Positions 11,217 through 63,569 of a DNA stretch of 64,000 nt are shown piece by piece; the stretch's first letter is position 1, and every line of letters starts with the position of its first letter. The stretch comes from an uncultured Thermoleophilia bacterium (GTDB taxonomy: Bacteria; Actinomycetota; Thermoleophilia; UBA2241), in NCBI GenBank assembly GCA_963715985.1, contig CAVQSP010000003.1, positions 32,001 through 96,000 of the forward strand, written 5' to 3'. Made by a program: the position numbers and the translations under genes. The notes under the pieces were generated by a model. The model saw nothing but the letters and a program-made list of their open reading frames with translations. It ran no database searches and was not told where the DNA came from.

Positions 11217-11219
11217 CGC

Positions 11220-17876: not shown

Positions 17877-17970
17877 GCCCGGCAGACACGGCGGGGCGCC
17901 GGGCCCGGCTGGCGGGCGCGCCGGGTTCGCGTCCGCGGTGGCGAGCACAACTGGCAAGAGGGAGAGTGCG

Positions 17971-20056: not shown

Positions 20057-20105
20057 ACGGCTCTTCGCACCTTGTGACGCGTCCGGACAAAAGGAGGCGA
20101 CCGGA

Positions 20106-22553: not shown

Positions 22554-24458
22554 ATGAGTGAAGCATACGAAGCGGCCTACCAGGCGTCCATCCTGCGGCC
22601 GGAGAGCTTCTGGGCCGAGGCCGCCGAGGGCATCGAGTGGACGCGGCGCTGGGACGCGGTCCTCGACCGCAGCGCCGCTCCCGCCCCGCGCTGGTTCGCC
22701 GGCGGCAGCCTCAACACCTGCTACAACGCCATCGACCGTCACGTCCTCGCCGGCAGGGGGGAGGCCGCCGCGGTCATCTACGACAGCCCGGTGACGGGCG
22801 CGAACGCGCGCCTCACCTACGCCGAGCTCCTCGAGGAGGTCTCGCGCTTCGCCGGCGGCCTGCGCGATCTTGGCGTGGAGCGCGGCGACCGTGTCGTCAT
22901 CTACATGCCGATGATCCCGCAGACGCTCGTCGCCATGCTCGCCTGCGCGCGCCTCGGCGCGGTGCACTCCGTGGTCTTCGGCGGTTTCGCCGCGCAGGAG
23001 CTCGCGACCCGCGTCGACGACGCCGAGCCCAAGGTCATCGTGTGGGCCTCGTGTGGGATCGAGGGCAGCCGGGTCATCCCCTACAAGCCGCTGCTCGACC
23101 GCGCCATTGAGCTGGCGCAGCGGCCGCCGGCGGCTACGGTCGTCTTCCAGCGCGAGCAGCAGCTCGCGCCGCTCGTCGACGGCAGGGACCACGACTGGGG
23201 CGAACTGAGGCGGGCCGCGCCGGCCGCCTGCGTCTCCGTCGCGGCCACGGACCCCCTCTACATCCTCTATACGTCGGGGACGACCGGCAAACCGAAGGGC
23301 GTGGTCCGGGACCACGGCGGCCACGCCGTCGCCCTGCTCTGGTCGATGAGGAACCTCTACGACGTCGGCCCCGGCGAGGTCTTTTGGGCCGCCTCCGACA
23401 TGGGTTGGGTGGTCGGCCACTCCTACATCGTCTACGCGCCGCTGCTGGCCGGCGCCACCACCGTCGTCTACGAAGGCAAGCCGGTGGGCACGCCGGACGC
23501 CGGCGCCTTCTGGCGCGTCATCGCCGAGCACCGCGTCAAGGCGCTCTTCACGGCCCCGACCGCGATCCGCGCGATCCGCCGCGAGGACCCGCAGGGCGAG
23601 CTCGTGAAGAGCTACGACACGAGCTCCCTGGAGGCGCTCTACCTGGCCGGGGAGCGTCTCGACCCCGACACCTACCACTGGGCCGGCGAGGTCCTCGGCG
23701 TGCCGGTGGTCGACCACTGGTGGCAGACCGAGACCGGCTGGGCGATCTGCGCCAACTGCCGGGGCCTCGAGGAGCTGCCCATGAAGGCGGGCTCGCCGAC
23801 AAGGCCGGTGCCGGGCTTCGACCTCGTGGTGCTGGATGCGTCCGGCGAGCCGCTGGAGCCGCCGGCGGAAGGCACCCTGGCCTTGCGCCTGCCCTTGCCC
23901 CCCGGCGCGCTGCCGACGCTGTGGCACAACGACGAGGGCTTCGTGACCACCTATCTGGCGCCGTTCCCCGGCTACTACTTCACCGGCGACAGCGGCAGCA
24001 TCGACGCGGACGGCTACGTCTTCGTCATGGGTCGCGTCGACGACATCATCAACGTCGCCGGTCACCGGCTTTCGACGGGGCGCATGGAGGAGGTCCTCGC
24101 CGCCCATCCTGACGTCGCCGAGTGCGCCGTGGTCGGTGCTGCCGACGACCTCAAGGGTCAGATCCCGCTGGGGCTCGTGGTGCTCAAGGAGGGAGCCGCC
24201 CGCGAGCCCGAGGATGTCACCGCCGAGCTCGTGCGTATGGTGCGCGAGCAGGTCGGGCCGGTGGCTGCCTTCAAGCGCGCGCTGGTCGTCCAGCGTCTGC
24301 CCAAGACGCGCTCCGGCAAGATCCTGCGCAGCGCCATCCGCAAGCTCGCCGACGGCGTCGAGTTCGCGACGCCGGCGACCATCGAGGACGCCTCCGTCAT
24401 CGAGGACCTGCGGATCGCCTTGGGTCATGACCAGCGCACGCAATCGCCGACCGGCTGA
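22554..24458 (+). CDS. prpE: propionate--CoA ligase / acyl-CoA synthetase
   Basis: WFAGGSLNTCYNAIDRH, YILYTSGTTGKPKG, DHWWQTETG, LPKTRSGKILR. Confidence 0.85.
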   Translation: MSEAYEAAYQASILRPESFWAEAAEGIEWTRRWDAVLDRSAAPAPRWFAGGSLNTCYNAIDRHVLAGRGEAAAVIYDSPVTGANARLTYAELLEEVSRFAGGLRDLGVERGDRVVIYMPMIPQTLVAMLACARLGAVHSVVFGGFAAQELATRVDDAEPKVIVWASCGIEGSRVIPYKPLLDRAIELAQRPPAATVVFQREQQLAPLVDGRDHDWGELRRAAPAACVSVAATDPLYILYTSGTTGKPKGVVRDHGGHAVALLWSMRNLYDVGPGEVFWAASDMGWVVGHSYIVYAPLLAGATTVVYEGKPVGTPDAGAFWRVIAEHRVKALFTAPTAIRAIRREDPQGELVKSYDTSSLEALYLAGERLDPDTYHWAGEVLGVPVVDHWWQTETGWAICANCRGLEELPMKAGSPTRPVPGFDLVVLDASGEPLEPPAEGTLALRLPLPPGALPTLWHNDEGFVTTYLAPFPGYYFTGDSGSIDADGYVFVMGRVDDIINVAGHRLSTGRMEEVLAAHPDVAECAVVGAADDLKGQIPLGLVVLKEGAAREPEDVTAELVRMVREQVGPVAAFKRALVVQRLPKTRSGKILRSAIRKLADGVEFATPATIEDASVIEDLRIALGHDQRTQSPTG

Positions 24459-24508
24459 CAGGCACGAGCCCGGCCCCCTCACGGGCCCCCGAGGAAGGTA
24501 GGACAGCA

Positions 24509-25981
24509 GTGAAACGCAATCTCCATGCCGGCCGCCGCCGCAGCGGCGGCCTGCGCCTCGACGTCTTCACCGACGACGAGCTCTCCGACATCCATCTGGC
24601 GACGCTGGACGTGCTCGAGCGCACCGGGGTCGGCGTCGAGAGCGAGGAGGCGCAGGAGATCTTCGCCGGGGCCGGCGCCCGCGTGCAGAGCGACGGGATC
24701 GTCAAGATCCCCGGCCACGTCGTCGAGGAGGCGATCGCCAGCACTCCGTCGCGGCTCGTCTGCTACGGGCGCGACCCCAAGCACGACATCGTGCTCGAGG
24801 ACGGGCGCGTCGGCTTCACCAACTTCGGCGAGGGCATCCAGGTCATCGATCCCTACACCGGCGAGCTGCGCCAGACCGGCAAGCAGGACGTCGCCGACTG
24901 CTCGCGGATCATCGACGCACTGCCCGAGATCGACGTCATCGAGCGGCCGCTGGGGGCGCACGACGTGCCGGAGGCCACCGGTCCGCTTCACAACGCCGAC
25001 GCCATCATGACCAACTGCTCGAAGCACGCCTTCATCGGCCCCCTGACCGGCTACCTCGCGAGCCGCATGCGCGAGATGGCAGCCGCCATCGCCGGCGGCG
25101 CCGAGAAGCTGCGCGAGCGGCCGATCCTCTCGTACGTGATCTGTCCGGTGGCGCCGCTCGGGATGATCCGCGACGTCTGCGACATCATCATCGACGGCGC
25201 CCGCAACCACGTGCCTATCACGCCGGTCTCGATCGTCATGGCCGGCGGCTCCTCGCCCATGAACCTGGCGGGCGCCGTGGTCACGACCAACGCCGAGATC
25301 CTGGGCTGCCTGACGCTGGCCCAGCTGACCCGCAAGGGGACGCCGGTCGTGTACGGAAGCTCATCGTCCTCGATGGACCTCCGCTACGCCTCCGCCTCCG
25401 TGGGCAGCCCCGAGTGCGGCCTCATCAACGCCGCCATCGCCTGTATGGCGCGCGCCTACCTCCTGCCCAGCTGGGTCGCGGGGCAGTAGGGCGACTCCAA
25501 AGTGGTGGATGCCCAGTCCGGCCACGAGAAGACCCTCACCGGTCTGCTGACGGCGTTGGCAGGTGCCAACCTCATCTACGGTGCGGGGATGCTCGAGAGC
25601 GGCATGACCATCGATTACGGCCAGCTCGTCATGGACGCCGAGTTCGCGCGTCTCATCAAGTACACGGTCGCCGGCGTGCCGGTCAGCGACGAGACGCTCT
25701 CGCTCGACGTGATCAACGACGTCGGCCCCTTCCACGACTTCCTCAGCCACGCCGACACCCTGCGCCACATGCGCACCCAGAGCCAGCCCACGCTCATCGA
25801 CCGCCGCGTCCGCGAGGAGTGGAGCGCCGACGGTTCGACGACCATCCACGAGCGTGCCACGGCCCGCGCCCGCGAGATCCTCGAGACCCACGTGCCCACG
25901 CCGCTGCCCGAGGGCGCCGCCGCCGAGATGGCCGCCATCATCGCCGACGCAGAGCGGCACCTGGGGGTGACGAAAGCATGA
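24509..25981 (+). CDS. mttB: trimethylamine:corrinoid methyltransferase family, pyrrolysine-containing copy 2 (TAG 25487-25489)
   Basis: 490 aa when TAG codon 327 is read through; VAGQ-O-GDSKVVDAQSGHEKT; GANLIYGAGMLESG. Confidence 0.92.
25376..25972 (+). repeat. ~600-bp direct repeat, apparently identical to 30409..31005 (3' parts of mttB copies 2 and 3)
   Basis: identical by eye; alternative-frame translations in the ORF track also match. Confidence 0.88.
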
Positions 25982-29348: not shown

Positions 29349-29541
29349 AGAGCTGCCGACAGACGCGATGCGCGCGCCGGGCGCTGAGCAAGGGAGCGGG
29401 CGGGACCGCTTGCGAACCGGACGTAACGGTGGTGAGCTTGAGCGAAGCGCGGCAAGGTCCACCGCCGCGGTCGGGCGCTTCAAGCAGCTCACGGGTATGG
29501 CCACCGTCGTCTGACGGGGCTCCGAGGAAGCGAGGACAGCA

Positions 29542-31014
29542 GTGAAACGCAATCTCCATGCCGGCCGCCGCCGCAGCGGCGGCCTGCGCCTCGACGTGTT
29601 CACCGACGACGAGCTCTCCGACATCCATCTCGGCACCCTCGACGTGCTCGAGCGCACCGGGGTCTACGTCGAGAGCGAGGAGGCCCAGGAGATCTTCGCC
29701 GGGGCCGGCGCCCGCGTCGGCGCGGACGGGGTCGTGAGGATCCCCGGCCACGTCGTCGAGGAGGCGATCGCCAGCACGCCCTCGCGGCTCGTCTGCTACG
29801 GCCGCGACCCCAAGCACGACGTCGTGCTCGAGGACGGGCGCGTGGGCTTCACCAACTTCGGCGAGGGCATCAACGTCGTCGACCCCTACACCGGCGAGCT
29901 GCGCCAGACCGTGAAGCAGGACGTCGCCGACTGCTCGCGGATCATCGACGCACTGCCCGAGATCGACGTCATCGAGCGGCCTCTGGGGGCGCACGACGTG
30001 CCCCAGGAGACGCAGCCTCTGCACAACGCCGAGGCGATCCTCACAAGCTGCTCGAAGCACGCCTTCATCGGCCCCATGACCGGCTACCTCGCGAGCCGCA
30101 TGCGCGAGATGGCGGCCGCCATCGCCGGCGGCGCCGAGAAGCTGCGCGAGCGGCCGATCCTCTCGTACATCACGTGTCCCATCAGCCCCCTCAAGATGGT
30201 GCAGGACGTCTGCGACATCGTCATGGAGGGCGCCCGCTCCGGCGTTCCCGTCAACGTCGTGTCCATGGCCATGGCCGGGGCGTCGTCCCCGGTGAACCTG
30301 GCCGGGACGTGCGTGTCACACAACGCCGAAGTGCTCTCCTGCCTCACGCTCGCCCAGCTCACGCAGAAGGGCGCGCCCATGGTCTACGGCAGTTCGACCA
30401 CGGGCATCGACCTCCGCTACGCCTCCGCCTCCGTGGGCAGCCCCGAGTGCGGCCTCATCAACGCCGCCATCGCCTGTATGGCGCGCGCCTACCTCCTGCC
30501 CAGCTGGGTCGCGGGGCAGTAGGGCGACTCCAAAGTGGTGGATGCCCAGTCCGGCCACGAGAAGACCCTCACCGGTCTGCTGACGGCGTTGGCAGGTGCC
30601 AACCTCATCTACGGTGCGGGGATGCTCGAGAGCGGCATGACCATCGATTACGGCCAGCTCGTCATGGACGCCGAGTTCGCGCGTCTCATCAAGTACACGG
30701 TCGCCGGCGTGCCGGTCAGCGACGAGACGCTCTCGCTCGACGTGATCAACGACGTCGGCCCCTTCCACGACTTCCTCAGCCACGCCGACACCCTGCGCCA
30801 CATGCGCACCCAGAGCCAGCCCACGCTCATCGACCGCCGCGTCCGCGAGGAGTGGAGCGCCGACGGTTCGACGACCATCCACGAGCGTGCCACGGCCCGC
30901 GCCCGCGAGATCCTCGAGACCCACGTGCCCACGCCGCTGCCCGAGGGCGCCGCCGCCGAGATGGCCGCCATCATCGCCGACGCAGAGCGGCACCTGGGGG
31001 TGACGGGGACATGA
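29542..31014 (+). CDS. mttB: trimethylamine:corrinoid methyltransferase family, pyrrolysine-containing copy 3 (TAG 30520-30522)
   Basis: 490 aa with read-through of TAG codon 327; same motif as copy 2. Confidence 0.92.
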
Positions 31015-33772: not shown

Positions 33773-34230
33773 CGCGCCGGACCGCGAGCTCGCGCCGACA
33801 CGGTCTGGCACAGGCCTGAGGAGAAGCGACGGACTTCTACACGGGAAGTGTGCTGAGGCTCGACCTCACGAGGCTCGAGGCCTCGGTCGAGCCGCTGGCC
33901 CACGGATCGGCGGCCTGACATGTCGCGAGGCGTCGCGACGAACGACCGGAGGTGGCCGGCACGGCACAGGGTCTGGCCGAGCGCCGTCGGCCCGCATATG
34001 CAGCGGTCAGAATCAGCCTTGAGAGAGGATCATGTCTGGGAGGATGCCTTTGGCAGAATGACAGCGCGCCATGGCGCGTCCGCCGTGCTGACTAGCCGGT
34101 CGAGTCTCTCTTGCTAGCATGCGGGAGGGGTTGTATGTTGCCGGGAAGTCGGCTGGGGGCGGTGTGGCGGCGCGAGATGCCGCGACCGCGTGTGTCGTTT
34201 CGCAGGACGAGTCTAGGGGGAATCGCGAAC

Positions 34231-35920
34231 ATGGCCAGTGAACAGTACCGCAGAGAGTACGCACAACACCTGGTGGAGATGGTCAACAAGGGCAAGATGA
34301 CGCGGCGCCAGCTGCTCATCAGGGCCTCCGTCTTCGGCTTCTCGGCGACGGTCGCCAGCCAGCTGCTGGCCGCCTGCGGCGGCAGCAGCAGCGGCGGCGA
34401 GACCACGTCGGCCTCGCCGACGGCCTCGGCGGGCCCCGAGCCCGTCATGGGCGGCACCCTCAAGGTCATCATCTCGCCGTCGATCACCGACATCGACCCG
34501 GTCACCATCTACGACCAGGGTGGCATCACGCTCATCTCGCAGTTCTGCGAGTACCTCATCAACCTCAAGGACGACATGTCGCTGGAGGGCCGGCTGGCGG
34601 AGAGCTGGTCGCCGAACGACACGGGCGACGTCTGGACCTTCAAGCTGCGCCAAGGCATCAAGTTCAACGACGGCAGCCCCTTCGAGGCTCCGGATGTCGT
34701 CTCCACGATGGACCGCCTCGTCGATCCCAAGAGCGGATCGGCCGCCCAGGCCGCCCTGCTCGGTATCCTCTCCGTCGGCGGCACGAAGGCAGTGGACCAG
34801 TACACGGTCGACTTCAATCTCGACAAGCCGTTCGCGGACTTCCCGTACATGGTGTGCACCTCCTCGTACAACACCGTGATGCTGCCGCGCAACTACAAGG
34901 GCGACTGGGTCAAGAACCCCGTGGGCACCGGTCCCTGGCTGCTCAAGGAATACGTGGCCAAGCAGAAGTGCACCGCCACCAAGAAGCCCGACTACTGGCG
35001 CAAGGACGCGGAGGGCCGGCAGCTGCCCTTCATGGACGAGATCGACTGGGTCATGATCGCGGACGAGTCGGCCTCCACGCTGCAGCTGCAATCGGGAACC
35101 GCCGACGTGCAGGCCCAGACCGTCTTCCAGGGCGCGCAGGCGCTGTGGACCGACCCCAACCTCAGGGTCGACATCTACCCGTCTCCCGGCATCCGCGAGC
35201 TCCAGATGAACACCCTGAAGGATCCCTTCACAGACAAGAGAGTGCGCCAGGCAGTCGCGCTCAGCCTCGATCGTGAAGCCATCAACCAGGCGCTCTTCGA
35301 CGGCAAGAGCATCATCGGCAACGACACCTTCTTCCAGACGCCGCCCTACCCCAACCAGCCGCCCACGAGTCGCGCGCACGCAGGACCACGCGAAGGCCAA
35401 GCAGCTCCTCGCGGATGCCGGATACCCAGACGGGCTCAAGGTCACACTGACCGCCGAGGACTACCTCGAGGTCCCGCAGTACGCGCAGCTCATCCAGGCG
35501 CAGTGCAAGCCGGCCGGCATCGACGTCAAGATCGACCCGATCCCCTACGAGCAGTGGTACGCGGGCGCCAACGACGTCACGCCCTGGCTCAACGTGCCTT
35601 TCGGCATCACCGAGTGGGGCCCGCGCCCGACCCCCGGCGTGTTCGTGCAGGCCATGCTCCTGCCTGATAGCGCCTGGAGCTCCTCGCACTGGAACAACCC
35701 GGAGTTCGCGAGCACCTTCGAGCAGTACATGTCCACGACCGACGAGGCATCGCGGCTCGATCTGGCCACCAAGCTGTCGGCCATCCAGCAGGACGACACG
35801 CCCATCATCGTGGCCTTCTACATCACGCAGCTGCGTGCCCAGAAGAAGACCGTGTACGGCATCACGGGCCCCGGCGCCTTCTACTGCGACGTGTCCGGGG
35901 CGTTCATCGCGACGGCGTGA
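34231..35920 (+). CDS. family-5 ABC substrate-binding lipoprotein with twin-arginine signal (frameshift near 35370)
   Basis: MTRRQLL...LLAAC, WTFKLRQGIKFNDG, PVGTGPW; C-terminal third continues in +1 frame (QDHAKAKQLLADAG). Confidence 0.85.
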
Positions 35921-51441: not shown

Positions 51442-52884
51442 CTACTGCACCAGCTTCTCGTCAGCACGCCGCACAACGGCGTCCAGATCGCGCTTGACGT
51501 CGTCAGGCAGGTCGAGCGGCGCAAGAGTGCCGCGCAGCTCCCGGTACTTCTCCACGGCGCGGTCGTACAGGTCCGGCTCACCCGCCGTCTGCCACGTGTC
51601 CAGCGGGTCGGCGATGAAGATGTCCTGGCGCACGGCCTCACGGCAGTGCTTGAGCGTGTGCTTGGCGCGGAGGTAGTGGCCGCCGGCGCCGGCGTCGAGG
51701 ATCGCCTGCACGCCCAGCGTGTCGTCGTCCACCTGCACGCCGGCCACGTAGCGGCGCAGCAGCGCCGTCATGCGGTCGTCGATGATCAGCTGCACGGGGC
51801 TGGCCAGCGTGGAGCCGCCGAGGCGGCCGGCGCCGTAGGCCACGTCCGCGCCGGCCATCGTGTTCAGCGTCGCGTTCACGCTCTTGGCCAGCAGGGTCTG
51901 GCCGTCCGAGACGTACGAGTCGGTCCAGAGCGAGGCCATGAGCACCGGTACGTGGAAGGCCTCGCGCATGAACTGCGCGGCCGCGGCCTGCGCGAGCGCC
52001 GTCTCCACCGAGGCGATGTTCGAGTTGCCCGTCGCCATGTCCAGCGTCGAGTTGTAGCCACAGGCGAGGATCGGGTGGCCCGGCGCCAGCACCTGCGTCA
52101 TCACGATCATGGCCAGCACCTCGACGCCCACCAGCAGAGCGCCGCCCGCCGGGGTGATGGGGCCCGTGCCGCCGCCGAGAACAAGGCTGCAGGGAGCGAC
52201 CGGGATGCCGTACTTGCAGCACAGCGTGATGGTCTCGAGGTCCATGTCCTTGAAGACCAGCGGCGAGAGCGACGTCGGGTCGAACCAGGCGAGCGGCCGG
52301 TCGCGCAGGGCCTCCTCGCTGCCGGCGCGCGCCAGCAGCAGCTCGAAGAGGTAGGGAACGCTCTCCATGCAGTAGGCGAGCAGGTTCAGGGGCTTGGACG
52401 TGTTCTGCAGCTGCACGGCCAGGGCGTGGATGTCGGCCGTCTCGGGCGGCACGTCCATCGGCGTCTGGATGGCGCAGGCGTCGATGTTGGGCAGTGCCTC
52501 GATCAGCTGGCACCACTCGGCGAAGAGCTCTTCGGTGTTGTCGCGGAACGCACCCGTCTCGGGGTCGAGGTAGAGCATGGACTGGATGCAGCTGGACGTG
52601 TAGAAGGAGCGGTCCGGATGCGGCAGGGTGAGGTCGTGGGCCGCGTCTCCCCCCTTGGCGACGAACTCGCGCGGAGCCGAGGCGAGGGCGGACTCGATGA
52701 GGTCCGCCGGGAACTTGACCATGCGCGTGGCGTCGTCAACCTCGCAGCCGGCGTCGCGCAGCCACCCAAGTGCGCCCTCGTGGTCCACCTTCACTCCGTG
52801 CCCGGAGAGGATCTCCACGCACTTCTCGTAGACGGTGGCGACTTCAGTGCTGGTCAGCGGCTGGATGCTGAGGGTGCCGGACAT
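51442..52884 (-). CDS. MttB-superfamily methyltransferase, pyrrolysine-free, distant from copies 1-4
   Basis: ILSGHGVKVDH, SPL, GGTGPITPAG, LDMATG, TDSYVSDGQ (Trp at Pyl-equivalent site), GGHYLRAKHT; ends in TAG. Confidence 0.85.
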   Translation of the reverse strand: MSGTLSIQPLTSTEVATVYEKCVEILSGHGVKVDHEGALGWLRDAGCEVDDATRMVKFPADLIESALASAPREFVAKGGDAAHDLTLPHPDRSFYTSSCIQSMLYLDPETGAFRDNTEELFAEWCQLIEALPNIDACAIQTPMDVPPETADIHALAVQLQNTSKPLNLLAYCMESVPYLFELLLARAGSEEALRDRPLAWFDPTSLSPLVFKDMDLETITLCCKYGIPVAPCSLVLGGGTGPITPAGGALLVGVEVLAMIVMTQVLAPGHPILACGYNSTLDMATGNSNIASVETALAQAAAAQFMREAFHVPVLMASLWTDSYVSDGQTLLAKSVNATLNTMAGADVAYGAGRLGGSTLASPVQLIIDDRMTALLRRYVAGVQVDDDTLGVQAILDAGAGGHYLRAKHTLKHCREAVRQDIFIADPLDTWQTAGEPDLYDRAVEKYRELRGTLAPLDLPDDVKRDLDAVVRRADEKLVQ

Positions 52885-53127
52885 GGGGGACCTCCTCGGA
52901 GGAGTGAAGACGACAAGAGCGGCGGCCGCCGGCCGACCTCAGGGGGGCGGGTCTCGCCAAGCGGCCGCCGCCGCGCGCCAAGACTAGGCGCCGCCGCCTG
53001 GGCGTTCAAGGCTCTGGACCCGCCGGTCCCACATGCTGGAGACGAGAAGGGGGCGGGATCACCTTGCGGAGACCCGCGGGACGCCCTCAGTGACCGGCCG
53101 GAATGGTGCTGGTGGCCGGGGCGCACG

Positions 53128-54702
53128 TCAGTCCGCCAGCGCCACCAGCAGGTCGCCGCCTTTGACCAGCTCCAGAGCCGCGGCGATGTCCACGTCCAGA
53201 GGCCGGTCTTCCTCCAGCACCGGCACGCGTTCGCGCAGCACGGCGCGAGCACGCGCCGTGCGTGACCCCTGCGGTCGGCCGCGCAGGTCCACACCCTGGC
53301 AGGCGCAGAGAAGCTCGATGGCCAGCACGGTCTGGGCGTTCTCGATGATCTCGCGGGCGTGGCGGGCGGCGATGGCGCCCATGCTGACGTGGTCCTCCTG
53401 GTTGGCCGACGTCGGGATCGAATCCACGCTGGCCGGGTGGGCGAGCACCTTGTTCTCGCTGACCAGCGCCGCGGCCGTGTACTGGGCCACCATGAAGCCG
53501 TCGTTCAGGCCCCCGTCACGCGTCAGGAAGCCGGGAAGGCCGGCGCTCAAGGCCGGGTTCACCAGCCGTTCGGTGCGGCGTTCCGAGATGCTCGCCAGCT
53601 CGGCCACGGCGATGCCGAGGAAGTCCATGGCGAGCGCGAGCGGCTGGCCGTGGAAGTTGCCGCCGCTGAGGACGTCGCCGGCGATCGGCGACGCGGCGTC
53701 AGCAGCGCCGGCTTCGATGCCCACGGCGTCGTCAACGGGGAACACCAGTGGGTTGTCGGTGACGGAGCCGGTCTCGGTCTCCACGACGCCGCGCACGTAG
53801 GCGACGGCGTCGCGCGAGGCGCCGTGCACCTGCGGCATGCAGCGGAGGGCGTAGGCGTCCTGGACGCGCCCGTGGGACGCCTGCTGCACGGCTGGACTGT
53901 CCGCCAGCAGCTTGCGCAGGTTGGCGGCCGTCGTGATCTGGCCGGGGTGCGGACGCGCCTCGTGCAGGCGTGCGTCGAAGGCGTCGGGAACGGCCTCGAG
54001 GGCCTCGGCCGTGAGGGCGCCGATCACGTCGGCCGTGTCGGCGAGGCGCGCGGCATCGCAGACGGCCAGCGCCCCCAGCGCCGCCATGGCCTGCGTGCCG
54101 TTGCAGAGCGAGAGGCCCTCCTTGGCGGCGAGCCGGACGGGCTCGATGCCCGCCGCCTGCAGAGCCTCCTTCCCGTACATAGTACGGTCGCTGGTCTCCG
54201 CTGCATGCGCCAAGGTCGCGCGGCCGCCGCCCATGAGCACCAGGGCGATGTGAGCGAGTGGGGCGAGGTCGCCGGAGGCGCCCACCGAGCCTTTGCTCGG
54301 CACCACCGGCAGCACGCCCCGCTCGAGCATCGCCACGAGCGTGTCCACGATGACCGGCCGCACTCCCGAGAGTCCGGCCGCCAGGGAGTTGGCGCGCAGC
54401 AGCAGCATGGCGCGCACGACCTCGGCCGGGAACGGCTCGCCGACGCCGGTGCAGCAGCTGGTCACGAGGTGCTCCTGCAGCCGCTCGACGTCGGCGTCGG
54501 CGATGCGCACGTCGGCGAGCCGACCGAAGCCCGTGTTCACGCCGTACACCGGGTCGCCGCGCCGCAGCTTGTCCTCGATCACGGCGCGGCTGCGCGCCAT
54601 GCTCGAGTACGCCTCGAGCGCGACCGTCACGGAAGCGCCTTCGCGCGCGACGCGCGCGACGTCCTCCACGCTCAGGCTGCTGCCGTCTATGCGCACGGTC
54701 AT
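53128..54702 (-). CDS. hutH: MIO-dependent ammonia-lyase, histidine ammonia-lyase family (variant)
   Basis: YGVNTGFG, GSVGASGDLAPL (MIO), KEGL, QDAYALRC, GGNFHG, NQEDHVSMG. Confidence 0.85.
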   Translation of the reverse strand: MTVRIDGSSLSVEDVARVAREGASVTVALEAYSSMARSRAVIEDKLRRGDPVYGVNTGFGRLADVRIADADVERLQEHLVTSCCTGVGEPFPAEVVRAMLLLRANSLAAGLSGVRPVIVDTLVAMLERGVLPVVPSKGSVGASGDLAPLAHIALVLMGGGRATLAHAAETSDRTMYGKEALQAAGIEPVRLAAKEGLSLCNGTQAMAALGALAVCDAARLADTADVIGALTAEALEAVPDAFDARLHEARPHPGQITTAANLRKLLADSPAVQQASHGRVQDAYALRCMPQVHGASRDAVAYVRGVVETETGSVTDNPLVFPVDDAVGIEAGAADAASPIAGDVLSGGNFHGQPLALAMDFLGIAVAELASISERRTERLVNPALSAGLPGFLTRDGGLNDGFMVAQYTAAALVSENKVLAHPASVDSIPTSANQEDHVSMGAIAARHAREIIENAQTVLAIELLCACQGVDLRGRPQGSRTARARAVLRERVPVLEEDRPLDVDIAAALELVKGGDLLVALAD

Positions 54703-54931
54703 CCCGTCGCTCCGCTACGCCCAACCACCGAGGGGCGCGGGGACTGTCCGCCCCCGACCGAGCGCCGGTCAGACCCGGGACCCACCCGGGATGAGGTTCG
54801 GATCGGCGCTTTCAATGGACCGTACGTCTGACAGCATCGTTGCTTGAACACGCGATGCGGACCATGCCTTCCGCCGGCGACCTGGCCACGCCGACGCTGC
54901 CCCAGCGACGCCCCTTGGGCGACCCCCCACC

Positions 54932-55816
54932 TCACACGTTCATCTCGATGGTCTGCGTCATCGAGAAGTCGTGGATCTGCAGGTAGTACCGCACGACCTC
55001 CTCGAGGGCGCCGAGCGGCACCGGACCCACGAGCTCGGCGCTCGCCACTGTCACGCCGTAGCGGGCGGCCTCGGCCTTGATGGCCTCCATCACACGAGGG
55101 ATGGGCGTCTGCGTGTAGTTGGTCAGATTCATGGAGACCTGCGTCATGCCGGTGCCGGTGAGGTCCAGGCCGATGGCGCGCACGTAGCGAAAGCCGCCGT
55201 TGAGGTTGCGGACTGCGTGGGCGATCTTCGTCGCGATGTCGAGCTCGTCGGTACGCAGGTTCACGTTGAAGGCCACGAGGGGGAAGCGCGCCGCGACCTG
55301 CGTGGCTCCCGACTTGGGCACAAACTCCGCCGGTCCTTCATCCGGTCTCCAGAACGGATCCGCGAGCTTCTCCGGCAGCGCCTCGTATTCGCCCTTGCGC
55401 ACGTCGACGAGGTTCCTGCGCTCGGGGCGCGTGGCCGCGTCCTCGTAGTAATACACCGGCACACCGAGGCCGCCCAGGAAGGCGCCGAACTCGCGGGCGA
55501 CGGCCACGGCCTCCTCTGTGGTCGTCTCCCCCACGGGGATGAACGGCACGGTGTCGAGGGCGCCGTGGCGCGGGTGGCTGCCGCTGTGCGTGGTCATGTC
55601 GACCATCTCGAGGACGGCGGCGGCGAACTTCTTGGTCGCCTCGAGCACGGCCTGCGGCTCGCCGAGGTACGAGTACACGGAGCGGTTGTGGTCCTTGTCC
55701 GCGGAGAGGTCGATGAGCTTGACGCCGGGCTGCGCCTTGATGAGCTCGACGAGCTTGTCGACCTTGGCCTGGTCGCGGCCCTCGCTCACGTTGGGCACGC
55801 ACATGAGGATCTTCAT
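54932..55816 (-). CDS. glutamate formiminotransferase
   Basis: CVPNVSEGRD, DKDHNRSV, HPRHGALD, LVAFNVNL, QVSMNL. Confidence 0.9.
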   Translation of the reverse strand: MKILMCVPNVSEGRDQAKVDKLVELIKAQPGVKLIDLSADKDHNRSVYSYLGEPQAVLEATKKFAAAVLEMVDMTTHSGSHPRHGALDTVPFIPVGETTTEEAVAVAREFGAFLGGLGVPVYYYEDAATRPERRNLVDVRKGEYEALPEKLADPFWRPDEGPAEFVPKSGATQVAARFPLVAFNVNLRTDELDIATKIAHAVRNLNGGFRYVRAIGLDLTGTGMTQVSMNLTNYTQTPIPRVMEAIKAEAARYGVTVASAELVGPVPLGALEEVVRYYLQIHDFSMTQTIEMNV

Positions 55817-56469
55817 GATGACTCCTTGGGGGGCGAGGCGGAGGCGGACGCCGGCGGAGCCTCCGCGCGGAGGCGCAGCTCCGCGGCTTCGGCGAGCAGG
55901 GCCCGGGCCTCCGGCACGTCGTCCATGCCGGCCACGTTGACGTCGATGTTGGCGGCGGCGCCGAGCACGCCGACCTCGGCGAGCCGCAGGGCCACCGCGA
56001 GATCTGAGGCGGCCGAGTCGTTGGAGCGGCCGCTGAGCTCGCGGCACAGGTCCAGCACCTTGGCGGCGCGGCGCGCGTTGTCGCGCGGCACCGTGGCGGC
56101 GGCGATGAGGGCGCCCTGGATGGCCGCCTGCCGCGCCGCCTTCTCGGCCTCGTCGCCCTTGGGCAGCGAGTACGCGGCCTTGATGAGCGAGTAGGCGGCC
56201 GCGTCGGCGGCGGCGCCCTCGGCGAGCGCGTCGCGCAGCTCCTCGGCCTCGGCCGCGCAGGCGCGGTAGCGCTCGTCGCCGAGCTCCAGGCCCTTGCCCA
56301 CGGAGAGGCGGGCCACCATACCCATCAGGCCCGCCGCCATGGCGCCGGAGAGGGCGGCGGCGGAGCCGCCGCCCGTTGTGGCGTCGCCGGCGTCCAGGAT
56401 GAGCGCCAGGACGCCGTGCAGCTCGTCGCTCACGTGCGGCCGTGCGCCGCCGTCGTCCTGCGCAGCCAT
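55813..56469 (-). CDS. formiminotetrahydrofolate cyclodeaminase family
   Basis: GGGSAAALSGAMAAGL, AYSLPK, SDLAVA, NIDVN. Confidence 0.85.
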   Translation of the reverse strand: MAAQDDGGARPHVSDELHGVLALILDAGDATTGGGSAAALSGAMAAGLMGMVARLSVGKGLELGDERYRACAAEAEELRDALAEGAAADAAAYSLIKAAYSLPKGDEAEKAARQAAIQGALIAAATVPRDNARRAAKVLDLCRELSGRSNDSAASDLAVALRLAEVGVLGAAANIDVNVAGMDDVPEARALLAEAAELRLRAEAPPASASASPPKESS

Positions 56470-57749
56470 CAGTCGCCCGCCCGGTGGCGCTCGACGACCA
56501 GCTCGCCGCGCTTGTAGACGCGCTCCACCACGTTGCCTCCCAGCCTGTAGATGGCGTGCTCGTACTGCGGCACGTCCCAGATCTGCACGTCGGCAAGCTT
56601 ACCCGCTGCCAGCACTCCTCGGTCATCGAGGGCGAGGGCGCGGGCGCCGCCGGCGGTGGCCGCCCACACGGCCTCCGCCGGGCTCATGCGGTAGAGCCGG
56701 CAGGCGAGCGCCATGACGAACTGCTGCGACTCTGCCCAGCAGCCGGGGCAGATGTCCGTGGCCAGGGCGAGCGTCATGCCGGCGGCGATGAGGGTGCGGG
56801 CGTCGAACGGGCGCGGGTGACGCACGGCGAAGTCGAGGGCAGGCATGATGACACCGACCACGCCGGCCGCAGCCATCTTCTCCATCACCTCGGGCGGCGT
56901 GAAGTTGAGGTGGTCGGCCGAGACCATGCGCATCTCGGCGGCCACATCGGTGCCGCCGATGTACGAGTAGGCGTCGGCGTGGATCTTGGGCTCCATGCCG
57001 GCGGCGCGGCACGCCTCCAGGATGCGCCGTGACTCCTCCGCCGTGTAGTAGCCGTCGTCGCACCACACGTCGGCGAACTCGGCGAGACCCTCTTGCGCGA
57101 TCAGAGGGGTCATCTCCTCACAGAGGATGTCGATGTAGCGGTCCCGCGCCACCTCGGGCGGGAAGCCGTGCGCCCCGAGGAACGTGGAGAGCACGTCGAC
57201 CGGCGAGGCGGCGTCGAGCGCCCTGTTGACGCGCAGCAGCTCGAGCTCCGTCTCGGTGGCGAGGCCGTAGCCGCTCTTGCTCTCGACCGTGGTGGTGCCG
57301 GCGGCGAGCATCCCGCTGAGGCGCACCGCGGACTGGGCGAGAAGCTCCAGCGAGGTCGCCTCGCGCGTGCGCGACACCGTCTCCATGGGGCCGACGCCGA
57401 TGCCGCGCGCGCGGATGGCGTCCATGTCGGAGGTCGTCATCTTGGCGGCGTACTCGTCCACGCGGGAGCCGCCGAACACGAGGTGCGTGTGGCTGTCCAC
57501 GAAGCCCGGCGCCACCACCTTGCCGCGCGCGTCCACGACCTCGGCGGCGGAGCAGTCCGCGGCCGCCTCGACGGCCGCGCGGCCGCCGGCCGCCAGGATG
57601 GTCTCGCCGGCGATGGCCAGCCAGCCGCCGGCGACGACGCCCGCGTCGTACTCGTCGCCGGCGCACGTGACCAGCTGCGCTGCGTCGGCGATCACCAGGT
57701 CGGCGCGCGGACGCCGGCCGCCACCAGCCGTCGTCTCGCCCTCAGACAT
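56469..57749 (-). CDS. hutI: imidazolonepropionase-like amidohydrolase (variant)
   Basis: PGFVDSHTH, GTTTVESKSGYG, LGAH, KIHAD, SADHL, ALATD. Confidence 0.82.
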   Translation of the reverse strand: MSEGETTAGGGRRPRADLVIADAAQLVTCAGDEYDAGVVAGGWLAIAGETILAAGGRAAVEAAADCSAAEVVDARGKVVAPGFVDSHTHLVFGGSRVDEYAAKMTTSDMDAIRARGIGVGPMETVSRTREATSLELLAQSAVRLSGMLAAGTTTVESKSGYGLATETELELLRVNRALDAASPVDVLSTFLGAHGFPPEVARDRYIDILCEEMTPLIAQEGLAEFADVWCDDGYYTAEESRRILEACRAAGMEPKIHADAYSYIGGTDVAAEMRMVSADHLNFTPPEVMEKMAAAGVVGVIMPALDFAVRHPRPFDARTLIAAGMTLALATDICPGCWAESQQFVMALACRLYRMSPAEAVWAATAGGARALALDDRGVLAAGKLADVQIWDVPQYEHAIYRLGGNVVERVYKRGELVVERHRAGD

Positions 57750-57781
57750 CGTCACCCTCGCCGTTGACGATCGCTGGGCCG

Positions 57782-59503
57782 TCAGCCCTCGAGGTCCCGC
57801 GGCCCGAACGTCGCCTTGCGCGTCCACCAGAGCGGCACCTTGATGCTCTCGTCGGTGAGCGGACCCGCCCGTTGGCCACGTCCCTGGCGGCCTCGTAGCC
57901 GGCCTGGGCGTGACGGATCACGCCGATGCCGGAGTCCACCGTCAGCGACACGGAGAGTCGCAGGTCGGCCTCCTCGGTGCCGTCGGCGATCATCGTGACG
58001 CCGGTGTGCACGGCCTCGCCCATCGAGTAGTTCGCCTGGCCGGCGATGAGGTCGGCCATGCCGCAGGAGTTCAGAAGGCCGTTGAGCACCGGCCAGTCGC
58101 TGATGAGGTCGCCGCCGTCCGCCATGTTCTCGGACTCGAACGTCGGGTTCACGATGGAGCCGGAGTCGAGGTTGTCGCGGGAGAAGGCCACCGGCCCCTT
58201 GACCTCGCCCTTGCGGATCAGGTCGTTGACGGCCAGGCCGAACTTCTTGCGCTGGCCGAAGCCCAGGTAGCAGATGCGCGCCGGCAGCGCCTCGATCGGG
58301 ATGTGCTCGCGGGCCAGCTTGATCCAGCGCGTCACCAGCAGGTCGTCGGCGAACAGCTCGAGGCAGAGGTCGTCGAGGCGCGCCAGGTCGCTCGCCTCGC
58401 CGCTCACGCAGGTCCAGCGGAACGGGCCCCGGCCCTCGCAGAACAGCGGGCGGATGTACTCGCTGACGAAGCCGGGGATCGTCATGGCCTCCGCCTCGGG
58501 CATGCCGGCGTCGCGGCACTCCTTGCGGATGCTGGTGCCGTACTCGAACGTGGGCACGCCGGCGGCGAAGAACTTGTTCATCGTGCGCAGCTGGCTCATC
58601 ATGCTCTCCCGCGCGCGCCGCAGGTACTCCTCACGGTTCTCGACGCGCAGCACAGCGGCCTCGTCCGGAGTGAGGCCCGCCGGGATGTACGAGATGGGGT
58701 CGTGGCACGGGCACATCTCAGTGACGATGTCCGGCCGGAAGCCCTTGTCGTAGGCCTCCTGGAACAGCTCCGCCGCGTTGCCCACCACGGCGATGCCGAG
58801 CGGCTTGCCCTCGGCGGCCGTCTTCTTCGCCAGCTCGATGGCCTCGTCCAGCGAGCCGACCTTGCACGTCGATGAACTTCTTCTCGATGCGGCGGTCGAT
58901 GACGCGTTGGTCGGCGTCCACCACGATGCCCACGCCGCCGTGCATCGTCATGGCGCGCGTCTGGTTGCCGCCCATGCCGCCGGCGCCGGCGGTGAGCAGG
59001 ATGCGGCCCACGAGCGAGTCGTCGTAGCACTTGCGGGCGATGGCCGAGAACGTCTCGAAGGTCCCCTGGATCACGCCCTGCGTGCCGATGTACTCCCACG
59101 GGCCGGCCGTGTACTGGGCGAACATCGTGAGGTTCTTGTCCTGCAGGTCGTAGAAGATGGGCCAGGTGGCCTTCATGATGTTGGTGTTGGCCATCACCAC
59201 GCGCGGCGCCAGCCGGTGCGTCTGGAACACGGCCACCGGCATGCCGGACTGCACCACGAGGGTCTCCTCATCGCCCAGCTCCTTGAGCGCCGCGACGATG
59301 GCGTGGTACGACTCCCAGTTGCGCGCGCACTTGCCGATGCCGCCGTAGATGACGAGCTCCTCCGGCTTCTCGGCGTTCTCCATGTTGTTCTCGAGCATGC
59401 GCAGGATCGTCTCCTGCTTCCAGCCTTTGCAGCGCAGCGTGGGGCCGCGCTGGGCCTTCACGGAGTAGAGGATCTCGGGCTTGGGTGTCTGGGAGTCGGC
59501 CAT
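57782..59503 (-). CDS. hutU: urocanate hydratase-family protein (variant; compensating indels near 58865 and 57868)
   Basis: ELVIYGGIGKCARNW, YIGTQG, GGMGGNQ, YIRPLFCEGRGPFRW, RHAQAGY. Confidence 0.85.
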
Positions 59504-59631
59504 TGGTCTCAATCCCTTTCTGAGCGTCGGCGTTCGCGCGGGCCCGCAGAGAGGGCGCGGCCACGGGGGCGCGAGCGGGCACGCCTACACTGATGGGGCC
59601 GCGCCCACGGCGCAACGAGGCATCGCCGTGT

Positions 59632-59645
59632 TCCCATATGTGGGA
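59632..59645. promoter_or_regulatory. TCCCA-TATG-TGGGA palindrome between hutU-like gene and IclR regulator
   Basis: inverted repeat in the divergent intergenic region; candidate IclR operator. Confidence 0.45.
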
Positions 59646-59758
59646 CTGGATTTCCGCGGCGCGACAGACGACGGAGCCTGCCGAGTCGCGTATCATGGTC
59701 TTGCCGGGTGCGGGCGGACCGCCCCGAGTGCGACATGTGCAGGCTGCGGGAGGCTGTT

Positions 59759-60640
59759 TTGACGACGCGACCAGTGGACGACGACGAGCTGACGGGCGGC
59801 GGCGTACCCGCGCGTTCGGCGGCCCGCGCGTTCGACATTCTGGAATACCTCAGCCGGCGCACGCAGCCGGCCTCGTCCGGCACCATCGGTCTGGAGTGCG
59901 GCATCCCCAAGTCCAGCCTGCACAACCTGCTGAACCTGATGAAGAAGCGCCGCCTCGTCACGCACCACCCCCACGACAAGACGTGGAGCCTGGGCCCGCG
60001 CCTGTTCGAACTGACGCCGGAGGCGCCGCTGCTGGTGCACGCTCTCGCCGTGCTGCGCGCCTTCGCCGCGAGCCCCACCGGGCTCACCCTGCGGGAGATG
60101 GGGCTGCGCGCCGAGCTGCCGCAGGCCGTGGTGAGGCGCGTCGTCCCGGTGATGGAGGAGGCCGACCTGCTGTGGGCCCAGCCCGACGGCAGCTACCGGC
60201 TGGGCCTCGAGCTCTTCAGCCTCGCCGCCCAGGTCGCCTGGGTGGACCGCCTGCGGGTGCTGGCGCGGCCGGTGCTCACGCAGCTCCGCGACTCCACCCG
60301 CGAGACGGCCAACCTGGCGGTGATGGACGGCGATCTCGCGATCTACGTGGAGCAGGTGGAGAGCCGCCAGGCGCTGCGGTACGGCGGCTGGCTGGGGCGC
60401 CGCATCTCCCTCGAGGGCACGGCGCTCGGGGCGGCCCTGCGCGATCCGTCCCAGGTGCACATGGCCGACGGCGCCGTGGAAGAGGGTGTCATGGCCATAG
60501 CCTGCGGCGTGGAGGGCACGTTCCCGCCGGCGGCCGTGAGCCTGCTCGCCCCCAGCTGGCGCATCGAGCGCTGGGGCACGGAGTCGGCCGGCCGCCTGGT
60601 GGCTGCCGCCGCGCGACAGCTGGCAGACCTGCTGGCCTGA
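59759..60640 (+). CDS. IclR family regulator with two tandem HTH domains
   Basis: RAFDILEYL...IPKSSLHNLL...WSLGPRL, second unit ALAVLRAF...YRLGLEL, then LRDSTRETANLA, TALG; start codon uncertain. Confidence 0.82.
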   Translation: MTTRPVDDDELTGGGVPARSAARAFDILEYLSRRTQPASSGTIGLECGIPKSSLHNLLNLMKKRRLVTHHPHDKTWSLGPRLFELTPEAPLLVHALAVLRAFAASPTGLTLREMGLRAELPQAVVRRVVPVMEEADLLWAQPDGSYRLGLELFSLAAQVAWVDRLRVLARPVLTQLRDSTRETANLAVMDGDLAIYVEQVESRQALRYGGWLGRRISLEGTALGAALRDPSQVHMADGAVEEGVMAIACGVEGTFPPAAVSLLAPSWRIERWGTESAGRLVAAAARQLADLLA

Positions 60641-61522: not shown

Positions 61523-62921
61523 TCAGGCCGTGATGCGGGTCGCCAGCCGCTCGAAGAACTCCGCCTGGAGCCGCAGGTCGTCGACGGCGATGCGTTCGTC
61601 CACGCCGTGCAGCCGCCGGGCCACCTCGCGGAAGTCCTCGCGTACGTAGGGGCAGAATCCGTAGGCGACCGCCGCCGGGAAGGCTTCGCGCACATGCGCC
61701 GAGTCCGTGAACCACGAGCCGAGCTCACCGATCACGCGGGAGCCGGGCACCACCTCGTTCAGCGTGGCGGCGATGGCGTCGCGTAGCGGACCCGCAGGGG
61801 TCGAGCGATTGCCGGACACGATGTCGCAGGAGAGCAGTGACCACTCGGCCGTGACGCCGGACAGGGCGCGCTCGAGCTCGCGGCGGACGTCCTCCTCCGT
61901 CTGCTCCGGCAGGATGCGGCAGTCTACGTGCACCTCCGCCGCCGGCGGGATGACGTTGACGGCGTCACCCTGCGTGCGCACCACGGTGGCGACGAACGTG
62001 AGGCCCAGCAGCGGCTCGATGAGGGCGGCCAGCCCGGCGTCGCCGGCCGCCAGCTCGCGCACCGCGCGCTGCGCCGTCGCGGGGTCCTTGAGGCGCTCGC
62101 GCAGGGCGCCGTCCTCGACGGTCAGGTCGATGAGCTCCCCGGGGATCGACGCCTCATCGACCTCGGGCTCGTAGGCGTCGAGCGCGGCCAGGACCGCGGC
62201 CAGGCCGCTCACCGCATTGCCCTGGTGCAGCGGCATGGAGCCGTGGGCGGCGCGACCCGTCACGCGGATCTTCGTGTTGGCGTAGCCCTTCTCGCCGGTG
62301 TGGAGTATGAACAGCGGGCCGGCGGGGGCGTGCGGCATGCTCCAGCCGCCCTCGTTCACCGTGAAGTCCGCGCGCAGCAGGTCCGGGTGGTGCGCGAGCA
62401 GCCAGCGTGCCCCACAGCGCACACCGGTCTCCTCGTCCGCGGTGGCCGCGAAGACGAGGTCGCCGCGAAGCGGCGACCCGGCGGCGGCGCGGCGCGCCAG
62501 ACGGACGAAGGCGACCGCCTGCGCGGCCAGCTGGTGCTTCATGTCCACGGCGCCGCGTCCCCACACGTAGCCGTCGCGGACGCGGCCGGAGAAGGGCGGC
62601 TCCTGCCAGCCCCGCCCGTCGGCCGGCACGACGTCGAGGTGCCCGAGCAGGAGCAGTGAGCGCCCGCCGCCGCTGCCGCGCAGGCGGGCGACGCAGTTGC
62701 CGACCTCGGGGGCCTCGCCGACGGTCGTGGCCTCCACTCCGTGGGCGGCGAAGAACTCCGTCAGCACCGCGAGCGCCGGGCGCACGTCGCCCGGCGGGTT
62801 GCTGGTGTCGGCGCGGATGAGCCGGGCCAGCAGGTCGACGACCTCGGCCGGGTCGCCGTCGGGGCGGGGCGGGTCGCGGGGCGGAGGCGTCCGGGGACCC
62901 GGCGGCGCGCGGGTCGTCCAC
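61523..62921 (-). CDS. M20/M25/M40 metallopeptidase (probable frameshift near the 5' end)
   Basis: LLGHLDVVP, WGRGAVDMK, ADEE, NEGG, AHGSMP, HGVDER; nearest start (GTG 62921) is one frame off. Confidence 0.85.
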
Positions 62922-62936: not shown

Positions 62937-63569
62937 TCAGCCGCCGCGCGCGAGCTCCTGGACGGCCGGCCAGACACGCTCCATGATGCCGGCCGTCTCG
63001 GCGGTGATCTCGGCGGCGCGCGCCAGCAGGGCGTCACGCGCCGCCTCGTCCTTGAGCGACGGCACGTTGATCTCCACGTTGAGCACGCCGCCGGCCACGC
63101 CGGTCGCAGCCATCTGGGCCGCGACACCGAGGTCGCTGGCCGCCGCGCTGTTGAAGCCGCCGCAGACCGTCTCGATGATCCGCAGGACCTCGAGGCACTC
63201 CTCGGCGGTGGCCAGCGGCACGTCGGCCGCGTTGCGGATGGCCACCTGGATCTGCGCAGACCGCGCCGCCTTCTCGTCGTCGGTCTGCTTGGGCAGCCGG
63301 TACGCCGCGACGACGTCCAGATAGGCGTCGGTGTCGCGGTCGACGGCCGCCATCAGCGCGGCGCGCAGCTCTTCGACACGCGCCAGCGCCTGCTCCAGGC
63401 CGGCCTGCCCGTCCTCGAGGCCGGCCCGGCCCAGACTCAGCCGGCAGACCATGGCCACGAGGCCGGCGGCCATGCCGCCGGCGGCCGCGGCCACGCTGCC
63501 GCCGCCAGGGGCCGGGGAGTCCGTCGCCAGCTCGGCGGCGAACCCCGACAGTGTCAGTTCAGTGAGCAT
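62937..63569 (-). CDS. second formiminotetrahydrofolate cyclodeaminase-family protein
   Basis: SPAPGGGSVAA, AYRLPK, SDLGVA, LNVEIN. Confidence 0.88.
   Translation of the reverse strand: MLTELTLSGFAAELATDSPAPGGGSVAAAAGGMAAGLVAMVCRLSLGRAGLEDGQAGLEQALARVEELRAALMAAVDRDTDAYLDVVAAYRLPKQTDDEKAARSAQIQVAIRNAADVPLATAEECLEVLRIIETVCGGFNSAAASDLGVAAQMAATGVAGGVLNVEINVPSLKDEAARDALLARAAEITAETAGIMERVWPAVQELARGG

Follow-up and report, generated by a model that had tools for sequence, protein, structure and literature searches.

The degradation of N-tau-methylhistidine by bacteria has reportedly been described by Beliaeva, Atac and Seebeck (ACS Chem Biol 2022). Trimethylammonia-lyases that lack the 4-methylideneimidazole-5-one (MIO) cofactor have no Ala-Ser-Gly triad and need a trimethylammonium group, as set out in the available part of one report (10.64898/2026.04.22.720169), and the characterized non-pyrrolysine members of the MttB methyltransferase superfamily covered in the accessible text of PMC13080624 act on glycine betaine, proline betaine, carnitine, gamma-butyrobetaine and phosphocholine. 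Here we examine a 64,000-nt stretch of DNA from an uncultured Thermoleophilia bacterium (GCA_963715985.1, contig CAVQSP010000003.1, positions 32,001 to 96,000; hereafter the window), in which six co-oriented genes of the minus strand span 51442-59512 and encode, in order, a urocanase homologue, HutI, a cyclodeaminase, FtcD, an ammonia-lyase and an MttB homologue. All coordinates are window positions unless another contig or locus is named. The window belongs to a draft genome (G000) with 22 contigs and a completeness of 88.8%.

From sequence comparison we consider it fairly probable that these six genes form a paralogous hut operon whose substrate is a histidine methylated on a ring nitrogen, N-tau(tele)-methylhistidine being the most likely, with an MttB add-on that probably harvests an N-methyl group linked to the pathway. 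The three enzymes that would act successively on the imidazole ring are changed in step. The variant enzyme set is already named in databases and is widespread. The link to MttB is the new element; this coupling of MttB to hut genes is a real and recurrent linkage, undescribed in the open-access literature searched.

Altered pocket residues in three consecutive enzymes

The lyase (53128..54702, minus strand) is an MIO-type ammonia-lyase of the histidase family, scoring 655 bits on TIGR01225 against a cut-off of 539. It keeps the MIO triad Ala142-Ser143-Gly144 (the motif GASGDL begins at residue 141) and, by alignment to solved histidases, the equivalents of Tyr53, Asn195, Gln277, Tyr280, Arg283, Phe329 and Glu414. 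Where the histidases of P. putida and T. cruzi have S-H-A/S, it has Ser82-Cys83-Cys84, encoded at 54459-54451, and the initial annotation was right in reporting the imidazole-binding His as lost and the MIO as kept. The equivalents of His83 and Glu414 bind the imidazole N-tau and N-pi, respectively, according to the available part of a preprint on histidine-betaine lyase (10.1101/2025.08.13.670108). The window lyase has thus lost the N-tau ligand and kept the N-pi ligand. Because the MIO is present, the substrate should have a primary alpha-amine; an MIO-less betaine lyase of the ergothionase type is ruled out by the Ala-Ser-Gly triad. A separate feature of this protein is a lineage-specific insertion of ~17 residues, VDDAVGIEAGAADAASPIAGD, at residues about 325-341, immediately ahead of the active-site loop GGNFHG. 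Just 6 of the 121 sequences in the alignment, one of them the query, have residues in all 23 columns of this region.

The urocanase homologue (57782..59503, minus strand), which we assign to the N(tele)-methylurocanate hydratase type, has all three domains (Pfam Urocanase_N, Urocanase and Urocanase_C) and two frame changes, and it matches TIGR01228 in two frames, at positions 2-206 and 207-537, with 263.9 and 361.8 bits. The equivalents of Tyr52, Thr133, Arg362 and Asp443, which we take to be the catalytic residues of urocanase, are kept (the numbering was counted for Arg362 and Asp443 only). In place of the canonical HutU pocket motifs GQMTAGSWIY, RDHLD..SP.RETE and HHGGGVG, the protein has AQYTAGPWEY, RDNLD..NPTFESE and GQ--ANYSMG. 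Set beside solved urocanases, it has FAQYTAGPWEYIG for GQMTAGSWIYIG, TEMCPCHDP for TDQTSAHDP, FSRDNLDSGSIVNPTFESE for GRDHLDSGSVASPNRETE, and GQ--ANYSMG for HHGGGVGMG. Each urocanase motif quoted in the initial annotation was found in its place.

The HutI paralogue (56469..57749, minus strand), whose start at the ATG at 57749 was inferred from alignment to orthologues, belongs to the imidazolonepropionase family, with 369.8 bits on TIGR01224 against a cut-off of 298. Its metal ligands, HxH, His249 and Asp324, are kept (motifs DSHTHL, KIH and TD). It has KIHADAYS and LATDICPGCW where HutI of B. subtilis has KIHADEID and LATDFNPGSS, which bears out the motifs HADA and TDICPG as they had been quoted. 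Alignment to 2bb0 gives the substitutions E252A, N326C, S329C and Y102M (B. subtilis numbering), and all four positions are presumably pocket residues.

The two remaining hut-type proteins are the formiminotetrahydrofolate cyclodeaminase (FTCD_C; 55813..56469, minus strand), with 136.9 bits on PF04961 against a cut-off of 24.5, and the glutamate formimidoyltransferase FtcD (54932..55816, minus strand), with 387.6 bits on TIGR02024 against a cut-off of 221 and 81% identity to its orthologue in the congeneric genome G007. ATGA overlaps join the hutI stop to the cyclodeaminase start and the cyclodeaminase stop to the ftcD start. Because genes for both FtcD and the cyclodeaminase are present, the capture of a one-carbon unit by folate, as had been proposed, follows from the gene content. 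A second FTCD_C gene lies upstream of the operon at 62937-63569, within 8 kb of the operon copy, and scores 196 bits as against 137 for that copy; the operon cyclodeaminase is only 53-58% identical among congeners whose urocanases are ~90% identical.

In the route that we propose, the MIO lyase, with Cys at the position of His83, would remove ammonia from N-tau-methylhistidine to give N-tau-methylurocanate, which the urocanase paralogue would hydrate to N-methyl-imidazolone propionate. The HutI paralogue would open the ring to give N-(methylformimidoyl)glutamate, and FtcD and the cyclodeaminase would pass the one-carbon unit to tetrahydrofolate, yielding glutamate and methenyl-tetrahydrofolate. 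The by-product of this last step would be methylamine, or ammonia if the methyl group had been removed first. We infer the substrate, each of the reactions and the release of methylamine at the cyclodeaminase step from these comparisons.

Distribution of the variant enzyme set

A tblastn search (E <= 1e-3) of data holding one genome per species revealed 339 stretches that encode a relative of the variant urocanase. We kept 75 distinct loci and checked the signatures in those. They come from Actinomycetota, Bacillota, Chloroflexota, Desulfobacterota, Spirochaetota and other phyla, and the homologues that are 76-93% identical to the intact orthologue of the window protein include those of Thermoleophilia metagenome-assembled genomes (MAGs), Brevibacillus, Scopulibacillus, Virgibacillus, Crassaminicella, Sporosarcina and others. 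The signature YTA[GA]PWEYIG is present in 75/75 loci, and both SRDNLDSGSIVNPTFESE and NYSMGEAVH are present in all 74 loci that were readable at the respective site; across the phyla sampled, at identities of 68-93%, these urocanase signatures do not vary.

The partner enzymes follow the same pattern. A HutI-like gene lies near the variant urocanase in 69 of the 75 loci, with E252 replaced wherever it could be read and N326 replaced by Cys in all but locus L055. At position 83, the 53 readable partner lyases of at least 45% identity have Cys (33), Asp (18, in Neobacillus and its kin), Ser (1) or His (1). When the 120 nearest lyase homologues were aligned with the query (121 rows), 44 rows, the query included, had SCC, 28 had SCV and 37 had the canonical SH[AS]; Cys83 is found in nearly all homologues above ~60% identity, and canonical S-H-A/S dominates below. 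Because the urocanase signatures are invariant and the partner HutI and lyase shift in step with them, the substitutions are not a matter of chance. The substitutions to which the initial annotation drew attention are real, but the number of stretches encoding a relative makes them less novel than it had assumed. Almost everywhere, the variant enzymes are annotated as plain histidine or urocanate enzymes.

In three actinobacterial loci (L065, L077 and L078) the variant urocanase and HutI genes adjoin that of a very divergent lyase, 33-36% identical, which lacks the Ala-Ser-Gly triad and has GQS-DL, G-QADL and GQA-DL, respectively.

The MttB gene and its linkage to hut genes

The last gene of the operon (51442..52884, minus strand) encodes a non-pyrrolysine member of the MttB superfamily that we call MttB-A. 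It matches PF06253 over model positions 31-496 of 500 with 217 bits, which places it in the superfamily, and its 332 bits on TIGR02369 fall below the cut-off of 525 for trimethylamine methyltransferase. As had been claimed of a pyrrolysine-free MttB homologue in the same orientation, the gene has no internal stop, and Trp aligns with the pyrrolysine of M. barkeri MttB. The protein was aligned to the solved chains 7xcl and 9yce. MtgB binds glycine betaine through Y97, R312, H348 and F356, according to the accessible text of PMC13080624; the corresponding positions of MttB-A are S, L, Y and S, in a pairwise alignment of such low identity that single positions are uncertain. On that alignment, with 0/4 of the glycine-betaine-binding residues kept, we set aside an enzyme of the MtgB type.

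The position of mttB in the operon is conserved among relatives. The order urocanase, hutI, cyclodeaminase, ftcD, (lyase), mttB holds in all four congeners that we fetched, with the lyase missing from the cluster in one. Of 54 congeneric genomes, seven carry MttB-A (at 79-81% identity), and these are exactly the seven with the variant urocanase, each having both on one contig; because these genomes are kin, this co-occurrence is weak as statistics. The adjacency is also present in all four metagenome contigs with enough flank, and a metagenome scan with MttB-A yielded only six loci, all of them close relatives. At E <= 1e-110, MttB-A had no match in 400 other genomes of a phylum-wide sample. 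In two more distant actinobacterial MAGs (L040 and L042), an MttB that is 64-65% identical stands in a different order: MttB, corrinoid protein, Cys-lyase, urocanase, hutI, cyclodeaminase, ftcD.

A sister paralogue, MttB-B, is 58-60% identical to MttB-A and lies within ~3 kb of a canonical-type urocanase gene in all but one of the 7 genomes with both genes listed. The sister cluster of G000 and G007 contains, in order, genes for an IclR regulator, MttB-B, a corrinoid protein and HutU (G007:C1:240000-259999, L112 6957-13295; G000:C12, L111 14383-19998), with 2-oxoacid:ferredoxin oxidoreductase and succinyl-CoA-synthetase-like genes downstream. In G007, hutU is followed by the gene for an MIO-less lyase, which has GSLGAADL for GSVGASGDL and ergothionase 6s7j as its best PDB match, and an arginase-family gene lies further on; this cluster looks like a route for histidine betaine. 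Elsewhere on contig 12 of G000 (L111 1497-9746), four or five tandem MttB paralogues, several of them frame-split, lie directly downstream of a canonical S-H-A histidase gene.

Unrelated MttB genes occupy a similar place in other phyla. A Syntrophomonadaceae locus (L088) has the full order urocanase, hutI, cyclodeaminase, ftcD, lyase (S-C-V), MttB. In the Anaerolineae locus L081, genes for urocanase, HutI, the lyase and MttB are followed by one for a methyltransferase of the URO-D family. The MttB proteins of both loci share only 25-29% identity with MttB-A and are not its orthologues. From the 15 and 6 MttB matches in the respective genomes, of 2.2 and 2.4 Mb, we estimate the chance of an immediate MttB neighbor at roughly 1-in-150 to 1-in-400 per genome. 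All told, an MttB gene lies within the flank in 11 of the 75 variant loci. We found no paper, in the open-access literature searched, that ties MttB to hut genes, hercynine, ergothioneine, histidine or urocanate.

We propose that MttB, together with a corrinoid protein, probably harvests an N-methyl group linked to the pathway, as an add-on that this lineage has and that other anaerobes have only here and there. The cognate corrinoid protein, whose gene adjoins that of MttB in L040 and L042, would be encoded elsewhere in the genome that holds the window. The methyl group could come from a precursor that carries more methyl groups, from the protonated methylimidazole (a methylimidazolium) in either the substrate or methylurocanate, or from cationic methylformimidoyl-glutamate, demethylation of which would give the normal FtcD substrate; the methylamine by-product is the least likely donor. 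It is a tentative idea, which we hold to be possible rather than probable, that MttB-A, MttB-B and the unrelated lyase-linked MttBs of Bacillota and Chloroflexota are all corrinoid-dependent demethylases of histidine-derived N-methyl cations.

Several points weigh against a methylhistidine operon whose methyl group is taken by MttB. The lyase and mttB genes are preceded by gaps of 229 and 243 nt, respectively, and may be separate transcripts. The known non-pyrrolysine MttB members, as covered in the accessible text of PMC13080624, all act on quaternary amines, and none of the expected intermediates of the pathway is a quaternary amine. The congeners that show the linkage are kin and not independent cases. 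No MttB lies in the flank of 64 of the 75 variant loci, and MttB therefore cannot be essential to the pathway; the genome that holds the window has 89 MttB-matching stretches, so some adjacency is expected by chance. On the side of the substrate, canonical histidase is reported in the available part of PMC11432326 to accept N-tau-methylhistidine, and loss of His83 is thus not required for that compound.

The abundance of MttB in this genome, its absence from most variant loci, the gap before mttB and the close kinship of all MttB-A genomes would also suit an operon that works as described with MttB as a mere neighbor by descent, acting on an unrelated methylated amine. We regard such an arrangement as rather unlikely, in that the adjacency outlives the rearrangement seen in L040 and L042, where MttB, corrinoid protein and lyase stand upstream of the urocanase; the nearest paralogue, MttB-B, also adjoins hut genes; and an unrelated MttB directly follows the lyase in two other phyla, in the genomes with few matches noted above. 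For the corrinoid demethylation put forward in the initial annotation, then, the conserved mttB linkage speaks in favor and the absence of MttB from most variant operons speaks against, and the step stands as a candidate. The check that it had suggested, co-occurrence with mttB in other genomes, came out the same way: mttB accompanies the variant urocanase in all seven congeners that have it and is missing from most of the wider set.

Assignment of the substrate

The assignment to N-tau-methylhistidine begins with a named relative of the urocanase paralogue. A protein of Crassaminicella thermophila (P0093, UniRef100_A0A5C0SBK3), named N(tele)-methylurocanate hydratase, is 77% identical to the intact orthologue that we used as query, and all six signature patterns occur in it and in 110 of the 120 nearest urocanase homologues. 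On the models for the thiourocanate hydratases (NF058530 and NF058531) the window protein stays far below the cut-offs, with 312+242 bits against 930 and, for the S-methyl type, 340+261 against 880. The solved chains 7ned and 8q9u, deposited as urocanate hydratase and presumably of the thiourocanate type, differ from the window protein at both N-part signatures, having TAAAWQY or TAACWQY and no YGG. A hydratase of the thiourocanate type was therefore rejected.

The initial annotation had suggested a search for a separate canonical hut operon. A canonical set is indeed present, split over two contigs of G000: contig 12 carries hutU (964 bits, with the motifs GQMTAGSWIY, RDHLD and HHGG) and hutH with S-H-A, and contig 14 carries hutI (427 bits, TDYNPGS), which is followed by a second ftcD. 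Because there is a named relative, because the N-tau ligand is lost and the MIO kept, because the thiourocanate models fail, and because the canonical set exists separately, the operon is best read as a paralogous pathway for N-tau-methylhistidine. The earlier proposal of modified-histidine catabolism is in this way supported by comparison, with N-tau-methylhistidine the most likely substrate and the individual reactions predicted.

The enzymes might instead act on some other modified histidine: N-pi-methylhistidine, a histidine with a 2-thio or S-methyl group, or one with a different substituent on N-tau. The UniProt name of the one homologue may be automatic, and several histidine derivatives have dedicated lyases, according to the available part of 10.64898/2026.04.22.720169. 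We nevertheless think this improbable: both the thiourocanate and the S-methyl-thiourocanate models are far from being reached and the signatures of 7ned and 8q9u differ, the retained MIO calls for a primary alpha-amine, and the altered lyase residue is the N-tau ligand, the N-pi ligand Glu414 being kept.

Integrity of the urocanase gene

By alignment to the intact orthologue, the urocanase gene of the window falls into three frame segments (59527-58862, 58866-57865 and 57859-57785), with frame changes near 58864 and near 57860-57865, both of which the initial annotation overlooked. Orthologues in four congeneric genomes are intact, with open frames of 574-627 aa at 86-90% identity. We compared the first break with public contigs from three wetland and soil runs, and one base fewer is present there in all five contigs that cover it: 1/1 in run X1, 1/1 in X3 and 3/3 in X5 (two at 58864, one at 58867). 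The X1 contig has only two other differences over all 501 bases compared. This check covers the first break; run X2 gave no cover there, and the second break lay outside the compared stretch.

Because every covering contig is without the extra base, the first break is an error of the consensus or, at most, a defect confined to a single strain. For the break at 57860-57865, an assembly error of the same type is likely, because other genes of the draft are also split between adjacent frames. One such gene is the SBP_bac_5 gene at 34096-35920, and several MttB and lyase genes elsewhere in G000 are split likewise, as would be expected of an assembly in which indel errors of one base are frequent.

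An ordinary or decaying hut operon, shaped by neutral drift and with a frameshifted pseudogene, would account for the two breaks and for the HutH, HutI and FtcD models passing above their cut-offs, but it is highly improbable and already largely refuted by the intact orthologues, the contigs over the first break, the invariance of the signatures across phyla and the existence of a separate canonical hut set. We accordingly rejected the reading of the urocanase gene as a pseudogene.

Neighboring genes

The DNA has a G+C content of ~70%. Divergent from the operon is an IclR-family regulator gene (59594..60640, plus strand; Pfam HTH_IclR and IclR_C), given as an open frame with the start not set. 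Upstream of the operon lies an M20-family metallohydrolase gene (61523..62887, minus strand; Pfam Peptidase_M20 and M20_dimer). This neighbor is conserved in congeners: in G007, L037 and L118 its orthologue (56-59% identical) immediately precedes the urocanase gene, and in L036 it is ~6.7 kb upstream, with two MttB genes between. The M20 hydrolase may supply the pathway with substrate, as a dipeptidase or deacylase.

A single in-frame TAG, placed where pyrrolysine would stand (Pfam model positions about 337 to 341), interrupts each of three further MttB genes of the window (20302-21573, 24431-25981 and 29515-31014), and 11 MttB matches with one TAG were found genome-wide. PylS (316 bits) and PylD (199 bits) are encoded on contig 13 of G000, at 554252-560053. 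Given the TAG-split MttB genes together with PylS and PylD, the genome appears to encode pyrrolysine. The window also holds a gene for an MtmB homologue without an internal stop, followed by one for a corrinoid protein (16362-18636); a 2026 paper (PMC13044021) links, by its title, non-pyrrolysine MtmB homologues to the use of tetramethylammonium and choline.

Significance and comparison with known systems

The urocanase, HutI and lyase signatures would let the variant enzymes be told from plain hut annotations. Thousands of non-pyrrolysine MttB members have no known substrate, and the recurrent wiring of MttB to the catabolism of histidine derivatives is a testable lead to one. If the hut-linked MttB proteins are in fact demethylases of histidine-derived N-methyl cations, the MttB superfamily would gain a new substrate class, and anaerobes could use the methyl group of methylhistidine for methylotrophic energy metabolism, with the carbon skeleton passing to glutamate and the ring carbon to folate. 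The wiring of MttB to hut genes would also tie the turnover of methylated histidines to the anaerobic metabolism of methyl groups by bacteria of wetlands and soils.

With the MttB superfamily (the pyrrolysine-containing trimethylamine enzyme MttB, and MtgB, MtpB, MtcB, MtyB and the phosphocholine enzyme) MttB-A shares a full-length PF06253 domain, and a corrinoid protein adjoins its orthologue and paralogue. It differs in having Trp and not pyrrolysine and in not keeping the MtgB ligands, and neither the accessible text of PMC13080624 nor the open-access literature searched links a characterized member of the superfamily to histidine compounds.

The catabolism of ergothioneine and histidine betaine is alike in that it uses paralogues of histidine ammonia-lyase and urocanase retuned for modified histidines, and the sister cluster of this genus has an MIO-less lyase. 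Ergothionase and the Shewanella proteins SO_3057, SO_3299 and Swoo_3913 are MIO-less trimethylammonia-lyases, whereas the window lyase keeps Ala-Ser-Gly. The window hydratase differs from the thiourocanate hydratases in failing both of their models.

The canonical Hut pathway, in the FtcD branch of anaerobes, has the same four folds, the same order of chemistry, the same catalytic residues and the MIO. The difference lies in the substrate-pocket residues, which are changed in all three ring-handling enzymes of the window, and in the canonical set being kept separately.

The window operon also resembles the N(tele)-methylurocanate hydratase set, in which the urocanase paralogue is 77% identical, the signatures are identical, and lyase and HutI paralogues stand alongside. 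The Neobacillus loci, from aerobic organisms, belong to the variant set and are organized differently: an M20-type hydrolase gene lies between hutI and the gene of the Asp83 lyase, FtcD is not encoded next to them, their flanks are free of MttB genes, and sigma-54 activator and ABC transporter genes are nearby. One of them, in Neobacillus cucumis (L099), has two variant urocanase copies (9995-11716 and 18816-20537). Unlike these loci, the route predicted for the window ends in FtcD and cyclodeaminase, and its operon carries MttB.

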